A DNA stretch of 64,000 nucleotides from Candidatus Yanofskybacteria bacterium (lineage in GTDB: Bacteria; Patescibacteriota; Minisyncoccia; 2-02-FULL-40-12; GWA2-44-9): assembly GCA_003514055.1 (NCBI GenBank), contig DOSG01000008.1, forward strand, positions 121,229-185,228, in the 5' to 3' direction. Of the stretch, positions 41,098 through 52,039 are shown piece after piece. The notes below the pieces were generated by a model. It did no database searches. It was not told where the DNA came from and worked only from the letters and a program-made list of their open reading frames with translations. Each line of letters begins with the position of its first letter. Position 1 is the first letter of the stretch. Both the position numbers and the translations under genes were made by a program.

Positions 41098-41179
41098 ATA
41101 TGCGTATTAATTAGCCCCAGTATTATAATACAAAAAAAGCCACAGATCAACTCTTCGTTGATTGGGCTTAAATTAGAAG

Positions 41180-41211
41180 AGGCCTGACACACGCGCTTGT
41201 GTGTCAGGCCT
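41180..41211. terminator. perfect 12-bp GC-rich hairpin (GGCCTGACACAC-GCGCTT-GTGTGTCAGGCC)
   Basis: Read directly; lies between the GC-rich ORF stop (41234) and the lon start; partial T run on the minus side. Confidence 0.4.
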
Positions 41212-41233
41212 CGATGGCCTGCCGGCCGATCGG

Positions 41234-41650
41234 CTACTCGCCGAACAGAGCGGCGACCGCCGTGGCCTGGACCTTCTCGAGCTCGGCTGCAGCAGCGGTC
41301 CGATTGGCATTCGCAATCATGGCCTGTTGCTGCAGGATCTCGTTCTGCGCAGCCTTGGACCGTTCACCAGCCGCCACGATCTGGTTGTCCCGCTCCGTAA
41401 GGAGCGCCTTCAGGTCGGCGCCGACCCGACTCTGAATCTCCATCATCGCGAGGACGCCCATCGCGATCTTCGCGCCCAGGCCAGCCTGATCACCGAGCTG
41501 CTGGAACATGGGTGCGGCTTTGGCGGCCTGCGCCAGGCCGAATGTCTTGACCGGCACCGGCTTGGGTGCCGGAGGCGGAGGCGTCAGCTTCCGCATGACG
41601 ATGAACGTGATGACCGCAACGACCACTGCGACGAGAAAGTAGTTGACCAT
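41234..41650 (-). CDS. GC-rich membrane-anchored protein with Pro-rich linker and helical domain
   Basis: From the internal ATG: MVNYFLVAVVVAVITFIVM (TM), PPPPAPKPVPVK linker, helical C-domain. GGGAGA SD 6 nt upstream. GC about 62 %. Confidence 0.4.
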   Translation of the reverse strand: MVNYFLVAVVVAVITFIVMRKLTPPPPAPKPVPVKTFGLAQAAKAAPMFQQLGDQAGLGAKIAMGVLAMMEIQSRVGADLKALLTERDNQIVAAGERSKAAQNEILQQQAMIANANRTAAAAELEKVQATAVAALFGE

Positions 41651-41736
41651 CTTGATTCTCCCTGAGCCATTTCTTCTTTCCCCACCGACTGGCTCTACGT
41701 CGGGTGGGGCTGGACACAACAACGAACTGTACTTAC

Positions 41737-41765
41737 ATTATACCGCATACGCGCTGAAAAGTCAA
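41737..41765 (-). promoter_or_regulatory. near-consensus sigma70 promoter TTGACT-17-TATAAT driving the GC-rich ORF
   Basis: Minus strand reads ATGCTTGACTTTTCAGCGCGTATGCGGTATAATGTAAG; 5'-UTR hairpin follows. Confidence 0.45.
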
Positions 41766-41834
41766 GCATAATTTTCTCACCAAAAAACGGCCATTTAGGC
41801 CGTCTTCGGGATGAAATACCTTATACAATAAATT

Positions 41835-43187
41835 TTACAGCTCGAAACTCTCGTCTTGCGCCGGAACAATCGCCTCTACGCCAGTGCTGGTTTTGATTCT
41901 CTGAGCTAAGGCCGTTGCCGCATCTTCTTCTCCTTGAACAACAAAAACTCTTCGTAGATTCCCACCCTCGGCAATTGATCCTATCCATTCGGCTAACATG
42001 TTCTGATCAGCATGAGCAGAATACCCACCGATAGCTACTACCTCACAATTAACCGCTACGTTCTCACCCATAATTTTTACCGATTTCTCGCCCTCTAGAA
42101 TCTTTCTACCCAAGCAGCCTTCAACTTGGTAGCCGATAAAAATTATCATCGAGTCCTTGTCAGATAAGTATCTTCTTTCGTGATGCAAAATTCTTCCGCC
42201 ATTAGACATTCCTGCTCCAGCGATAATTATCTTCGGCCCGACGATATCATTTATAGATCTTGACTCCTGAGAAGTTACGGTAAAGCGCAGACCAGGAAAA
42301 TCAAATATATCATCGCCCGAATTAATTATATAATTCGTCTTAATATTCATGTAGTCAGAATATCGCCTGTAAACTTCCGTAAGCTTAATGGCTAGCGGCG
42401 AATCGACAAATATAGGGATGTGCGGAATCTTTTTTTCATTTATAAGATTGTTAAGCTCGTATAATAGTTCCTGAGTACGCTCAATGGCAAACGAAGGTAT
42501 CATAATCGTACCGCCACGCGTTATGGCCTTCGAAATCGAACTTAAGAGAATATCCCTTCTCGTCTCCCTATCTTCGTGAATCCTCCCACCGTAAGCTGAC
42601 TCGATGACGGCATATTCGCCATCGTGAGGCATAAACGGATAATTTAATAGTGGCGTCGGAGGATTACCCAAGTCTCCGGAGAAATAGATCTTCTTACCTT
42701 CAAATTGAATCTCAATGATAGCCGACCCTAGAATATGTCCAGCGTCGTGGAATTTGATTTTTATACCACCGAGAGCCTTCTCTTCTTCGTAGTTAACTGG
42801 CTCAGCTAAAGATAATATGCCATCAAGATCTTCCGCATTAAAGAGCGGCTCATGATTATGCTTGACAGCTTCATCAGAAATCAATCCCAGATTGTCTGGT
42901 AAAGCTCTTGTTATTAAACCAAGAGTAGCTTCGGTAGTAATTAACTTACCCCTAAAACCATCTTTATATAATTTGGGCAACCTGCCCACGTGATCAGCGT
43001 GGCTATGAGTTATCAAAACGTAATCTATCTCTCCAGGAATATAAGGGAAAGGAGCATAATTTAAGTCTTCGGAGTACTTTGATCCCTGAAACAATCCGCA
43101 ATCAATCACCAGCTTTAAACCACCCACTTCTAGCAGGTAATTCGAGCCAGTTACCGACTTTGCTCCACCATAAAAAGTTATTCTCAT
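41835..43187 (-). CDS. beta-CASP metallo-beta-lactamase ribonuclease (RNase J-like)
   Basis: HSHADHVG motif, beta-CASP region, 450 aa. Confidence 0.65.
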   Translation of the reverse strand: MRITFYGGAKSVTGSNYLLEVGGLKLVIDCGLFQGSKYSEDLNYAPFPYIPGEIDYVLITHSHADHVGRLPKLYKDGFRGKLITTEATLGLITRALPDNLGLISDEAVKHNHEPLFNAEDLDGILSLAEPVNYEEEKALGGIKIKFHDAGHILGSAIIEIQFEGKKIYFSGDLGNPPTPLLNYPFMPHDGEYAVIESAYGGRIHEDRETRRDILLSSISKAITRGGTIMIPSFAIERTQELLYELNNLINEKKIPHIPIFVDSPLAIKLTEVYRRYSDYMNIKTNYIINSGDDIFDFPGLRFTVTSQESRSINDIVGPKIIIAGAGMSNGGRILHHERRYLSDKDSMIIFIGYQVEGCLGRKILEGEKSVKIMGENVAVNCEVVAIGGYSAHADQNMLAEWIGSIAEGGNLRRVFVVQGEEDAATALAQRIKTSTGVEAIVPAQDESFEL

Positions 43188-44099: not shown

Positions 44100-44708
44100 C
44101 TATTGGAGACTGGAAGAATGATTCAGTAATTTAGCAATTTTCTTCTTAACGTAGCTGGTGCCACGATTTTTGCCGAATAGAATATCAAATGCCCTCACCC
44201 GCCACTCATGAACTCCGCGAGAATGGCCATTGATCGCCGCCTCGACATAATTAGTATCGAGATAGAATGTTGGCCTCCTAACTCTAGCGCCGAAGATCAT
44301 GACTAGCATCATCTTACCCATCAAGGTCTTGGCGGCGACGATATCGTCACTGTCAAAGCACTCCGTCCACCGCTCTCTCAATTTCTTAACAGAAATATTT
44401 CGATTCTTTCTATTATATATATTCCTTTGGGTTGCGCCGGCCAACCAAAGCTGGGCAACATTATCGTGAGGCTTCTCGCAGAATATGACCCCATGGACGT
44501 AATCGATGATATCCCAAACCTCAAACAGAGTTAAGTTTTGGAACAGAGCGTGCCAAGCACGATGAGATCTGACAGTCCACCGAAATTCGTTGAACTCAGA
44601 CATAATGAATTCAATATCGTCATTTTTGCGTCCACCATCTTCACGTACACGACTGCGAGGTATAATATGATGTGAGCTAAGATTCTTCCTAGTCTTAGCC
44701 ACAATCAC
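44100..44708 (-). CDS. HNH endonuclease family protein
   Basis: SSHHIIPRSRVREDGG...HRAWHALF resembles the HNH His-Me finger (HH...N...H). Confidence 0.45.
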   Translation of the reverse strand: MIVAKTRKNLSSHHIIPRSRVREDGGRKNDDIEFIMSEFNEFRWTVRSHRAWHALFQNLTLFEVWDIIDYVHGVIFCEKPHDNVAQLWLAGATQRNIYNRKNRNISVKKLRERWTECFDSDDIVAAKTLMGKMMLVMIFGARVRRPTFYLDTNYVEAAINGHSRGVHEWRVRAFDILFGKNRGTSYVKKKIAKLLNHSSSLQ

Positions 44709-50220: not shown

Positions 50221-50249
50221 TGACATCGTAGGGCCAATGTGCTATACTT
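50221..50249 (+). promoter_or_regulatory. consensus sigma70 promoter TTGACA-17-TATACT
   Basis: TTGACATCGTAGGGCCAATGTGCTATACT; AAGGAGG SD at about 50317-50323, 6 nt before the ATG at 50330. Confidence 0.5.
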
Positions 50250-50329
50250 GACACAAGCTAGGAGTGGCTAGTGGACAGCGCCCGATATTGGGAATGCCAC
50301 AAGGTCGCTCTTTCACAAGGAGGCAGGAC

Positions 50330-50722
50330 ATGGGATGGACCAAGTCGAAGAAGTCATCGTTCAAGGCCGGCGACCGCGTCACCGTCCCCGGTGGGTACGG
50401 AGACGGCACAATCACCGAGTTCGAGGATGGCTGTGGCGGCGGAGAGCTGGCGAGCGTGAAGCTCGACAGCGGCCGACAGGAGTGGGTCGGCGTCAGCCGC
50501 CTCAAGGCGGCCGGACCGAAGAAGTCCACGGACAAGAAGGCCGACGACTACGAGCTCTACGTCCGTGACGTCATCAGAACGTCCGACGGCCGGCTCGGCC
50601 TGATCAAGGACTTCACGTACGGCGGGTGCAGCGACCAGTACGCCGTCGTGATGTTCCACGACGGTCAGACCCGCGAGTACAACGTCTCGCGGGTGACGCT
50701 GGTGGCGGCCGCAACGCGGTAA
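50330..50722 (+). CDS. GC-rich cytoplasmic protein with two KOW/Tudor-like beta repeats
   Basis: MGWTKSKKSSFKAGDRVTVPGGYGDGTITEF... and ...YELYVRDVIRTSDGRLGLIKDF...YAVVMFHDGQTREY. Start chosen at the SD-preceded internal ATG; the track ORF begins at an upstream GTG. Confidence 0.45.
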   Translation: MGWTKSKKSSFKAGDRVTVPGGYGDGTITEFEDGCGGGELASVKLDSGRQEWVGVSRLKAAGPKKSTDKKADDYELYVRDVIRTSDGRLGLIKDFTYGGCSDQYAVVMFHDGQTREYNVSRVTLVAAATR

Positions 50723-50779
50723 CGCCCCCCACCTCGCCCACCCAGGGCCGCCTCATCGACGAGATGAGGCGGCCCCCAA

Positions 50780-50824: not shown

Positions 50825-50917
50825 AATACAATAAATCGGTTAGTAACTCTTAATACTACGCTTACAATGGTAAATAACATCATAAAAACCCGACATTTTT
50901 GATTAATACCCAACGAC

Positions 50918-50946
50918 TTGATTTATCCTAGATTATATGTTATAAT
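50918..50946 (+). promoter_or_regulatory. consensus sigma70 promoter TTGATT-17-TATAAT
   Basis: TTGATTTATCCTAGATTATATGTTATAAT; AGAGAGGAG SD ending 4 nt before the ATG at 51005. Confidence 0.5.
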
Positions 50947-51004
50947 ACACGTACGGAGTGACCTTTTACAACCATTGCCGATACAACGTTAAGAGAGGAG
51001 ACAG

Positions 51005-51571
51005 ATGAGACAAGTACTCGTCGATAACTGTGGCTGGTTTTCGTTGTTGGCCTTCTTCGTAATGGGGTGGGCCTACTACATGACGGCCACGATCCTCATG
51101 CGAGGATCGCTGTTCATCGGCCTCCGCGGCCGAATCGACCAGATAGCCGAGAGCGGCTCGTGGCTCTGCACGAAGATTCGCGAGATGCTGGGATGCCTGA
51201 TGTGCACGGCCACCGAGGCGGCCATCTGGACACTCGGCATCGCGACTCTCGGACTCGGCCTGTGGTACAACGTTCCCGACGCGATCATCGGCGCGGCGCT
51301 CGAGAAAATCGGGGCGATTGGCTCCGATAAAATGATCGCGCTGCCGTGGTACGCAAGCGTGGCCATTATGGCCGGCGTATCGTTCGCCCTATCCCTGGCC
51401 GTCGCTGGTCAGGCCTGGGGCATCAAGTGCATCGTTGAGCATCAAGAGGTCAAGTTCTTGGAGCTTCGGAAAGGATCCCGAGCTCGAGAGATTGAACTCC
51501 TCGAGAGGATCAGCGAGCTCGAGAGAACTCCTGGAAAGAGTTGCGAGAAGTACGAATACGATCTGTCCTAA
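51005..51571 (+). CDS. GC-rich polytopic membrane protein with C-terminal charged coiled tail
   Basis: 4-5 TM (FSLLAFFVMGWAYYMTATIL...), then EIELLERISELERTPGK; 188 aa. Confidence 0.45.
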   Translation: MRQVLVDNCGWFSLLAFFVMGWAYYMTATILMRGSLFIGLRGRIDQIAESGSWLCTKIREMLGCLMCTATEAAIWTLGIATLGLGLWYNVPDAIIGAALEKIGAIGSDKMIALPWYASVAIMAGVSFALSLAVAGQAWGIKCIVEHQEVKFLELRKGSRAREIELLERISELERTPGKSCEKYEYDLS

Positions 51572-51584
51572 CGAAGGAGCTGAA

Positions 51585-51926
51585 ATGAAAGTTAAAGCCA
51601 TTATTCCGTTCGCTGAGTTCGCGACAATCTATGCCGCCCTACCTCGTTCCGAGAATTGCGCAACCGTAAGGTGCGCATTCAGCAAGACAACCTGCCACGT
51701 TCGGGAGGCTCGCGAAGCCTGCCGCGAGTGGTGGAAGCGCACCAACGACGGTGCGCCAGGATTCTCGAATTACGAGGCCACGTTCCAGAATGCGATCGAT
51801 GCCGAGAACGCCATCTACTGGTGTTTCCGGACTGGCGACATGGAACCGGCCCAAAAGGCATACGATCTTTTGACCGACGAGCTTCGTGCTCGATTCAGCG
51901 GTCAGCTCCGGATGTCCGGTAGCTAG
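51585..51926 (+). CDS. GC-rich small Cys-containing protein
   Basis: MKVKAIIPFAEF...ENCATVRCAFSKTTCHVREAREACREWW (4 Cys, possible metal site); AAGGAG SD 6 nt upstream; 13 nt after the previous stop (operon). Confidence 0.4.
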   Translation: MKVKAIIPFAEFATIYAALPRSENCATVRCAFSKTTCHVREAREACREWWKRTNDGAPGFSNYEATFQNAIDAENAIYWCFRTGDMEPAQKAYDLLTDELRARFSGQLRMSGS

Positions 51927-51954
51927 ATCTGGCATTCACCACCGGCATAGCCGG

Positions 51955-51986
51955 GGCCGCCCCTCAAAAGGCGGCTTTTATTTTTA
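51955..51986 (+). terminator. intrinsic terminator (GCCGCC-CCTCAAAA-GGCGGC + TTTTATTTTT)
   Basis: Read directly. Confidence 0.55.
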
Positions 51987-52039
51987 TACTTGCAAATATC
52001 AATAAAATGTATTAAAGTATGTAAATCAATTTACATATA

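Follow-up and report, generated by a model that had tools for sequence, protein, structure and literature searches.

A probably acquired, moron-like single-gene cassette in the variable interval between a beta-CASP ribonuclease gene and lon of a Candidatus Yanofskybacteria genome

Single-gene genomic islets and atypical ORFans acquired by horizontal gene transfer (HGT) are a general concept. A moron is a gene with its own promoter and terminator and a deviant GC content that forms extra DNA relative to related genomes and resides in a phage genome, e.g. HK97 gene 15 (Cumby, Davidson & Maxwell 2012, PMC3594210). Here a 64,000-nucleotide stretch of a Candidatus Yanofskybacteria bacterium (positions 121,229 to 185,228 of contig DOSG01000008.1, assembly GCA_003514055.1; called the window) was analysed, in which a GC-rich cassette on the minus strand lies between lon and a gene for a beta-CASP metallo-beta-lactamase (MBL) ribonuclease. 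This cassette is quite probably a horizontally acquired, autonomous, moron-like single-gene transcription unit occupying a variable beta-CASP–lon slot of a low-GC bacterium of the Candidate Phyla Radiation (CPR).

With phage morons the cassette shared its own promoter, its own terminator, a deviant GC content, extra DNA compared with relatives, and a small protein unrelated to its neighbours. It differed in being chromosomal among housekeeping genes and in lacking phage genes within 10 kb on either side and phage or viral homologues. Four of the five moron features were thus present, but residence in a phage or prophage was not, and for this reason the cassette is called moron-like and not a moron. 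With genomic islets and ORFans it had in common atypical GC content and codon usage, a patchy distribution, a flexible slot and almost no homologues; it differed in that its expression signals were unusually clean and complete, that it was one of several in 64 kb, and that its homologue was likewise a GC island in a lower-GC genome.

Along the minus strand the order was beta-CASP gene, its terminator, promoter, leader, Shine-Dalgarno sequence (SD), 138-aa open reading frame (ORF), hairpin, lon promoter and lon. The cassette itself comprised the following predicted features.

41765-41760 (-35, TTGACT) and 41742-41737 (-10, TATAAT), minus strand: sigma-70-type promoter with a 17-nt spacer, 11/12 to consensus.
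41651..41730, minus strand: 5′ leader of about 80 nt (predicted extent), holding a 10-bp GC hairpin and the SD.
41662-41657, minus strand: SD GGGAGA, 6 nt before ATG 41650-41648.
41234..41650, minus strand: protein gene, 138 aa, ATG 41650, stop TAG 41236-41234, deposited as hypothetical protein UW46_C0001G0046.
41169..41212, minus strand: intrinsic terminator, perfect 14-bp GC-rich stem (GAGGCCUGACACAC / GUGUGUCAGGCCUC), 6-nt loop and U-containing tail (UUCUAAUUUA).

Most of these signals had been named in a preliminary description of the locus, made by a model from the letters of the window. Its minus-strand TTGACT-17-TATAAT promoter at 41737-41765 and its GGGAGA SD were both found as described. 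The promoter was ~41% GC, a host-like composition. In a promoter scan, four promoter-like sites were detected in 1.3 kb versus 1.1 expected, and the sole plus-strand site scored 9/12 and was directed out of the ORF. Transcription would start near 41730. The proposed structured 5′ untranslated region, an 80-nt leader with a GC hairpin, stood only in part. A 10-bp GC stem (41709-41680, CCCCACC(C)GAC / GUCGGUGGGG) was present in the minimum free energy (MFE) structure, in which the SD was in part paired with the 5′ end of the leader, but the whole 83-nt leader folded no better than shuffled sequences (z = -1.5, 16/200) and the hairpin was not found in the leader of the only homologue, P0004 (see below). 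On these two grounds the leader was rejected as a regulatory RNA; it also had no Rfam match. The perfect hairpin after the stop was recovered with a stem of 14 bp, not 12; its fold (41212-41179) reached -39.4 kcal/mol (z = -5.5), and 0/200 shuffles were as good.

Protein matches of the window pointed to Candidatus Yanofskybacteria GW2011_GWF1_44 (CPR/Parcubacteria), and the product of the cassette ORF was 100% identical to the deposited 138-aa protein (P0001). The length of the ORF was no evidence of coding, because stop-free runs of at least 138 codons occurred in 23% of mononucleotide shuffles of the GC-rich segment and the same-phase antisense frame was also open; in P0004 this antisense frame had two stops. 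The GC contents of the first, second and third codon positions (GC1/GC2/GC3) were 0.70/0.42/0.81, and the GC3-GC2 difference of 0.39 was matched by 0/5000 shuffles. Searching the locus against Rfam at E ≤ 10 gave noise only (best 19 bits versus a gathering score of 100); at the gathering threshold only two tRNAs were found in the whole window, and ARAGORN detected no tRNA or transfer-messenger RNA (tmRNA) at the locus. The lack of an RNA family, the codon periodicity and the pattern of substitutions relative to the homologue indicated that the island is a protein gene and not an RNA. A longer, TTG-started frame of 162 aa (41722) opened ~8 nt from the predicted transcription start. The SD, the deposited annotation and P0004, which starts directly at its transmembrane (TM) helix, pointed to ATG 41650 and not TTG 41722 as the start codon, in agreement with the preliminary description, in which the first 24 codons of the longer frame were considered probably untranslated.

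The composition of the cassette was foreign to its surroundings. The GC content was 41.8% for the window, 63.9% for the cassette core (41179-41715, 537 bp), 64.0% for the ORF and 37-43% for the flanks, placing the island 4.5 standard deviations over the window mean. The earlier figure was about 62%; over the span to which it had been applied (41100-41830) the GC content was only 56.6%. GC3 was 0.81 in the ORF versus 0.37-0.43 in lon, the ribonuclease gene and uvrB, and the relative synonymous codon usage (RSCU) of the ORF correlated at -0.41 with host genes and at +0.58 with the other GC-rich islands of the window.

The interval in which the cassette lies was variable. Nine related CPR loci (Lon 66-74% identical) kept the beta-CASP-...-lon synteny, and the cassette gene was present in none of them; relatives with an identical conserved gene of similar GC content, which according to the preliminary description would speak against a foreign module, were thus not found. 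The block murE–cupredoxin-like gene–beta-CASP gene–lon–amino-acid permease gene–wzy was found in full in one relative (L004) and as overlapping parts in the others. The beta-CASP–lon interval was 63 bp in L006, and in eight others a TIGR00730/LOG-family gene adjoined lon. Before this LOG gene stood a ~185-aa opposite-strand orphan gene (L085 and L089) or split or frameshifted remnants of it (L087 and L088); in this place L086 had an SPFH/Band-7 gene, and L091 had no convincing gene. The corresponding stretch of L004 was masked and was excluded from this comparison of occupants. All occupants in the relatives were of ordinary GC content. The suggested check whether the spacer is short in relatives was thus positive for L006, but not for the eight others with their unrelated genes. 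Neither a LOG gene nor the 185-aa gene occurred in the window, and its spacer contained no DNA remnant of the relatives' intervals; these occupants have all been lost from this genome. Since the interval is variable in relatives, the cassette was taken as a lineage-specific gain. These comparisons indicated that the beta-CASP–lon interval is a flexible slot with the cassette as a lineage-specific occupant.

The borders of the slot and the genes on either side were as follows.

41783..41808, minus strand: putative intrinsic terminator of the beta-CASP gene (GAAGACGGCC-loop-GGCCGUUUUUU); fold z = -4.3, 0/200 shuffles as good.
41835-43187, minus strand: beta-CASP metallo-beta-lactamase gene, 450 aa (Pfam Lactamase_B + Beta-Casp + RMMBL).
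41122..41150, minus strand: putative native lon promoter TTGATC-17-TATAAT, 10/12 match, outside the cassette and forming its downstream boundary.
41097-38767, minus strand: lon (Pfam LON_substr_bdg, AAA, Lon_C).

The upstream edge of the cassette was marked by the beta-CASP gene terminator at 41808-41783. A TTGAT...-17-TATAAT-like element occurred directly upstream of lon in L004, L006, L086, L088, L089 and L091, and was not evident in L005 and L085. Because the lon promoter is conserved in most relatives, the downstream edge was placed between 41179 and ~41155. The wider surroundings comprised murE (Mur-ligase family), a cupredoxin-like gene, the beta-CASP ribonuclease gene, lon, a permease gene, wzy, uvrB and ruvA. 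The beta-CASP gene beside lon was kept across this CPR clade. In NCBIfam it matched best the type VII CRISPR Cas14 MBL-CASP model, with 405 bits (cut-off 800), and archaeal aCPSF1, with 280 bits (cut-off 580), and no RNase J model was among its matches at E ≤ 1e-5. Thus, lon and a ribonuclease gene do flank the cassette as first described, but the upstream neighbour is a CPSF-type beta-CASP MBL ribonuclease and not RNase J. Farther upstream, a 202-aa minus-strand ORF of ordinary GC content (44100-44708) sat between murE and the cupredoxin-like gene. It had no tblastn match among the eight closest loci listed in the Lon scan and no Pfam match, and may be a further lineage-specific insertion in the same conserved block.

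Among 1.84 billion representative sequences (~15 billion proteins), phmmer found a single distant homologue, P0004 (129 aa). Another match, P0003 (E = 4e-22), involved 12 stretches of an Ala-rich repetitive protein of 1367 aa and was attributed to composition. P0004 aligned end to end with the cassette protein at 38% identity, sharing the TM helix, a Pro/Ala linker, KTFGL(A/S)Q, the long helix and a C-terminal ...FG(E/F). Compared with composition-preserving shuffles, the similarity gave z = 17.6 over the full length and 5.2 for the helix only. Nucleotide identity by codon position was 0.54/0.58/0.43, different codons were used at 23 of the 48 conserved residues, and synonymous and third positions were near saturation. 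Judged against P0004, the ORF is under protein-level purifying selection, and the two proteins form a new two-member family. No further members were obtained from a 5.8-billion-protein search with the cassette protein and with P0004, from phmmer, or from the IMG/VR, JGI (Joint Genome Institute) metagenome, phage and plasmid searches; the IMG/VR and JGI metagenome scans were queried with the two-sequence alignment, and tblastn against INPHARED phages and PLSDB plasmids and the IMG/VR scan gave no match to the family.

The gene for P0004 lay on a 1.7-kb contig (L084, SRR22387768_2813442) and also formed a GC-rich island, with a GC3 of 0.78 versus 0.51 in an adjacent fpg-like gene. Its expression signals were a separate promoter-like site (TTGACA), an SD reading AGGAGG and a strong terminator, and the gene was placed between a tRNA 3′ end (L084 1-33) and a group I intron region (660-1000; Rfam RF00028, 49.4 bits versus a gathering score of 50, E = 4e-11). 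Downstream on this contig a tRNA was apparently interrupted by the group I intron (ARAGORN reported no tRNA on the contig) and was followed by an fpg/mutM-like gene.

The cassette protein was predicted to consist of three segments.

41585..41647, minus strand: N-terminal TM helix, residues 2-22 (VNYFLVAVVVAVITFIVMRKL); AlphaFold2 helix, Kyte-Doolittle 19-residue mean 2.62.
41537..41584, minus strand: Pro-rich linker, residues 23-38 (TPPPPAPKPVPVKTFG); no regular secondary structure, predicted local distance difference test score (pLDDT) 58-65.
41243..41536, minus strand: single long Ala/Gln-rich alpha-helix, residues 39-136; AlphaFold2, pLDDT above 90 for 71-130.

This AlphaFold2 model, made from the single sequence, had a mean pLDDT of 83 and agreed with the N-terminal TM segment, poly-Pro linker and helical domain of the preliminary description, although the protein had 138 and not 139 residues. 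The linker terminated in the KTFGL(A/S)Q motif, which was invariant between both family members, and the C-terminus carried a conserved ...A.FG(E/F). Ala made up 21% of the protein, and Val, Pro and Gly were also frequent. No charge preceded the TM helix; R20 and K21 lay at its C-terminal end and K30 and K35 in the linker, and P0004 likewise had no charge before its TM helix and several Lys/Arg after it. The positive-inside rule would thus favour an N-out/C-in topology in both members. One heptad register of the long helix was enriched in L/I/A, and coiled-coil self-association is plausible.

Known families gave no match. Pfam had no family at E ≤ 10 for the cassette protein or P0004, and nothing significant was found for either in Pfam, NCBIfam and PHROGs, where the best E values were 0.02-0.1 to unrelated families; the best PHROGs match (E = 0.02) was a tail-chaperone family aligned over the TM/Pro region. 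PADLOC gave no match to the cassette protein, and that of P0004 to PbeC (E = 0.037) was not significant. The best phmmer match among PDB sequences had an E of 1.3, and Foldseek returned 0 matches in PDB and a best E of 4 in BFVD, a single long helix being a poor query for fold searches. The candidates suggested earlier for the helical domain (PspA, LemA or a holin) were therefore not borne out by homology or structure searches, no Pfam, NCBIfam or PHROG match being significant. PspA has no TM anchor, and holins are shorter and usually have two to three TM helices; the likeness of PspA/IM30, LemA and holins to the cassette protein is only that of helical, membrane-associated proteins. The E. 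coli protein YhcB (DUF1043) is an N-terminally anchored bitopic protein with a long cytoplasmic helix, and is not known to have a Pro-rich linker or KTFGLxQ. It resembled the cassette protein in size (~130-140 aa), in an extreme N-terminal TM segment without preceding positive charge, in basic residues after it and in the long helix, but was not related to it in sequence (Pfam gave no family at E ≤ 10).

Promoter, leader, SD, a protein with TM helix, Pro-linker and helical part, and terminator were thus all recovered, which upheld the earlier picture of an autonomous, compositionally foreign module. Such a cassette would be transcribed from ~41730, independently of its neighbours, to the 14-bp hairpin. 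With a terminator on either side it would be insulated, and lon would stay under its native promoter. The product would be inserted into the membrane via its N-terminal helix as a single-pass protein, N-out/C-in, with the Pro-rich segment as an extended spacer; the Ala/Gln-rich helix of ~98 residues would self-associate or bind a partner at the membrane surface, probably on the cytoplasmic side. By analogy to small moron-type genes, and given the host-dependent, parasitic life reported for a Ca. Yanofskybacteria/UBA5738 lineage, we guess with low confidence that the product could be an accessory envelope-associated factor (exclusion, envelope modification or host interaction).

The locus was stable among assemblies. 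Over 20.4 kb, JGI and NCBI assemblies matched the window with 100% identity, and 51 blocks of the collection listed the cassette protein. The cassette junctions were the same base for base in separately deposited assemblies (JGI 3300025095, ggKbase/NCBI GWF1_44 and GWE1_40, and GCA_003483035.1) and in many Logan runs. These assemblies represent one clone, 100% identical over 20 kb, and carry no polymorphism for a selection test. One sister assembly differed.

41313..41332, minus strand: 20-bp deletion in GWE1_40 (L003 10001-10585), the sole difference in 15.6 kb.

This deletion frameshifts the last 28 codons and fuses the frame into the lon leader, and the product was deposited as a 194-aa protein. 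It could reflect a knock-out allele or, alternatively, a mistake in assembly.

Several observations weigh against a horizontally acquired, autonomous unit. Given the GWE1_40 frameshift, the gene may be dispensable or decaying. No scars of mobility were found, i.e. no terminal inverted repeats or target-site duplication, and only repeats of 9-10 nt at chance level, none of them at the borders. Within 10 kb on either side of the cassette there were no integrase or phage genes, all genes being housekeeping ones. No donor was found among the sequences searched, and the sole homologue was also in a lower-GC genome; the argument for HGT from a high-GC donor is for these reasons a purely compositional one, and the donor would be an unsampled high-GC gene pool. 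The cassette promoter, transcription start and terminator are themselves read from sequence, and the promoter, with its host-like composition, could be a captured native one and not transferred DNA. Finally, the hydrophobic-moment periodicity of the long helix was not significant (z = -0.4), which makes coiled-coil formation a conjecture.

Other origins of the island were weighed against acquisition of a moron-like unit. It is unlikely that the cassette is the remnant of a decayed mobile element, be it a true phage moron or plasmid gene or the product of a vector as yet unrecognised that drops promoter-ORF-terminator modules into spacers. Such an element would fit the deviant GC content, the cassette's separate promoter and terminator and the presence of DNA that relatives do not have, and likewise the four or more similarly built high-GC orphan cassettes nearby, with a codon usage common to them, and the position of P0004 beside tRNA genes, a classic integration zone; but the neighbours over 10 kb on each side were all housekeeping genes without integrase or phage families, INPHARED, PLSDB and IMG/VR gave no matches, the PHROG matches were not significant, and the borders were without repeats. 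That the gene is native and vertically inherited, its GC content merely following from an Ala/Pro/Gly/Val-rich composition, was largely refuted and retains a slender chance: 21% Ala together with Val, Pro and Gly does raise GC1 and GC2, and the promoter is host-like, but a GC3 of 0.81 is not set by amino acids and is twice the host's 0.37-0.43, synonymous codon choice was anti-correlated with that of the host, and the gene was absent in nine relatives that keep the synteny. An assembly chimera or contaminating high-GC DNA could explain the abrupt compositional jump, but has a negligible probability in view of identical junctions in separately deposited assemblies, a promoter of host composition with signals in the correct order, and similar islands on the same contig.

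The nature of the product was weighed in the same way. Structured RNAs often account for GC-rich islands in AT-rich genomes, and a non-coding RNA, with the ORF a by-product of few stop codons, would agree with the strong hairpins at both ends, the open antisense frame and the ease with which chance ORFs arise at 64% GC (23% of shuffles). These tests refuted it and left it extremely improbable: there was no Rfam match beyond noise at E ≤ 10 and no tmRNA or tRNA, the 3-base periodicity was reached in 0/5000 shuffles, and the substitutions relative to P0004 were protein-like with motifs kept. A small membrane protein with toxic or lytic action, resembling a holin or spanin or serving as the toxin of a toxin-antitoxin pair and tightly controlled by the leader, is very unlikely, although the N-terminal TM helix with a helical domain, the SD partly paired in the MFE fold, and the frameshifted allele in a sister population, as a costly gene might show, are in its favour. 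No holin, spanin or toxin family was found in Pfam, PHROGs or PADLOC, nor a partner gene or endolysin; there was no convincing antisense promoter, 138 aa is large for a type I toxin, and the leader fold was not significant.

Some described classes were tried and rejected. A type I toxin-antitoxin system should have a toxin of <60 aa and an overlapping antisense RNA gene, whereas the protein here had 138 aa and the plus-strand site (9/12) was directed out. A transposable element or miniature inverted-repeat transposable element (MITE) should have terminal inverted repeats and a target-site duplication, which were not found at the borders. An anti-phage defence system was rejected in that no PADLOC model matched the cassette protein.

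The cassette was not alone. At least four further high-GC orphan cassettes with a promoter-SD-ORF-hairpin build were found within the 64-kb window, in the following places.

48176-47895, minus strand: cassette between ruvA and uvrB, ATG 48121, 61 aa, two predicted TM helices.
50222-50777, plus strand: cassette 20 bp after the uvrB stop, ATG 50330, 130-aa soluble orphan protein, GC3 0.89.
50917-51990, plus strand: two-gene cassette with a TTGATT-17-TATAAT promoter, ending in a putative terminator.
16091-15774, minus strand: 105-aa ORF, rich in Cys, with a hydrophobic segment resembling a signal peptide, GC3 0.80.

The ruvA–uvrB cassette had a TTGACC-17-TATGGT promoter-like site, an SD (GGAGGGGGG) and a GC-rich terminator (GGGUCCCGCGCG/CGCGCGGGCCC) with a U-run, and its 61-aa protein gave a weak YgaP-like_TM match (E = 0.012). 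The cassette behind uvrB had a TTGACA-17-TATACT promoter, a ~80-nt leader, an AGGAGG SD and a GC hairpin after the ORF; its 130-aa protein matched nothing in Pfam, PHROGs, PADLOC or IMG/VR. In the two-gene cassette, the first gene (51005-51571) coded for a 188-aa multi-TM protein whose helical tail was charged, and the second (51585-51926), behind its own SD, for a 113-aa soluble orphan protein; neither product had family matches. The 105-aa ORF lay in the largest GC-rich tract (14650-16400, 58-66% GC) and was flanked by two 163-nt direct repeats, 99% identical (15589-15751 and 16102-16264). The part of this tract from 15150 to 15600 showed no clean codon periodicity and no Rfam match, and may represent decayed foreign DNA or a structured RNA not yet described.

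By BLASTP the products of the sibling cassettes were unrelated to each other, and two other island proteins had no match in IMG/VR. The pooled codon usage of the islands correlated at r = -0.25 with the host and at r = +0.58 with the cassette gene. High-GC islands were rare in the related CPR loci compared, with one ordinary example, in L007. There, in a Parcubacteria locus (9905-10522), a single 205-aa gene had 57% versus 41% GC and its own SD and terminator, which shows that compositional islets of one gene are found at other places in CPR genomes as well. A literature search on GC-rich orphan islands in CPR genomes gave nothing relevant. A bolder and rather unlikely proposal is that the cassette described here is one of a set of dispersed high-GC orphan cassettes (at least five within 64 kb, mostly coding for small membrane or secreted proteins) that were repeatedly delivered into spacers of CPR episymbionts by an unsampled high-GC pool or vector, or are actively kept GC-rich; both the cassette gene and that of P0004 had a GC3 of ~0.8 inside lower-GC genomes despite near-saturated synonymous divergence. 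If true, this would point to an unrecognised reservoir (a host organism, phage or plasmid associated with CPR bacteria) and to the way in which these reduced genomes acquire genes for surface or host-interaction functions.

CPR bacteria (Patescibacteria) have tiny genomes and are host-dependent. Some lineages that are classified as Ca. Yanofskybacteria/UBA5738 parasitise Methanothrix (PMC9600506). Taken alone, the cassette codes for a hypothetical protein in a small genomic islet, which is common in bacteria. The few accessory genes of CPR genomes, above all those for membrane or secreted proteins, are obvious candidates for host interaction and phage resistance, and this cassette and its nearby siblings are concrete targets that also pose the question of the source from which a CPR genome of 42% GC obtains orphan genes of high GC content.

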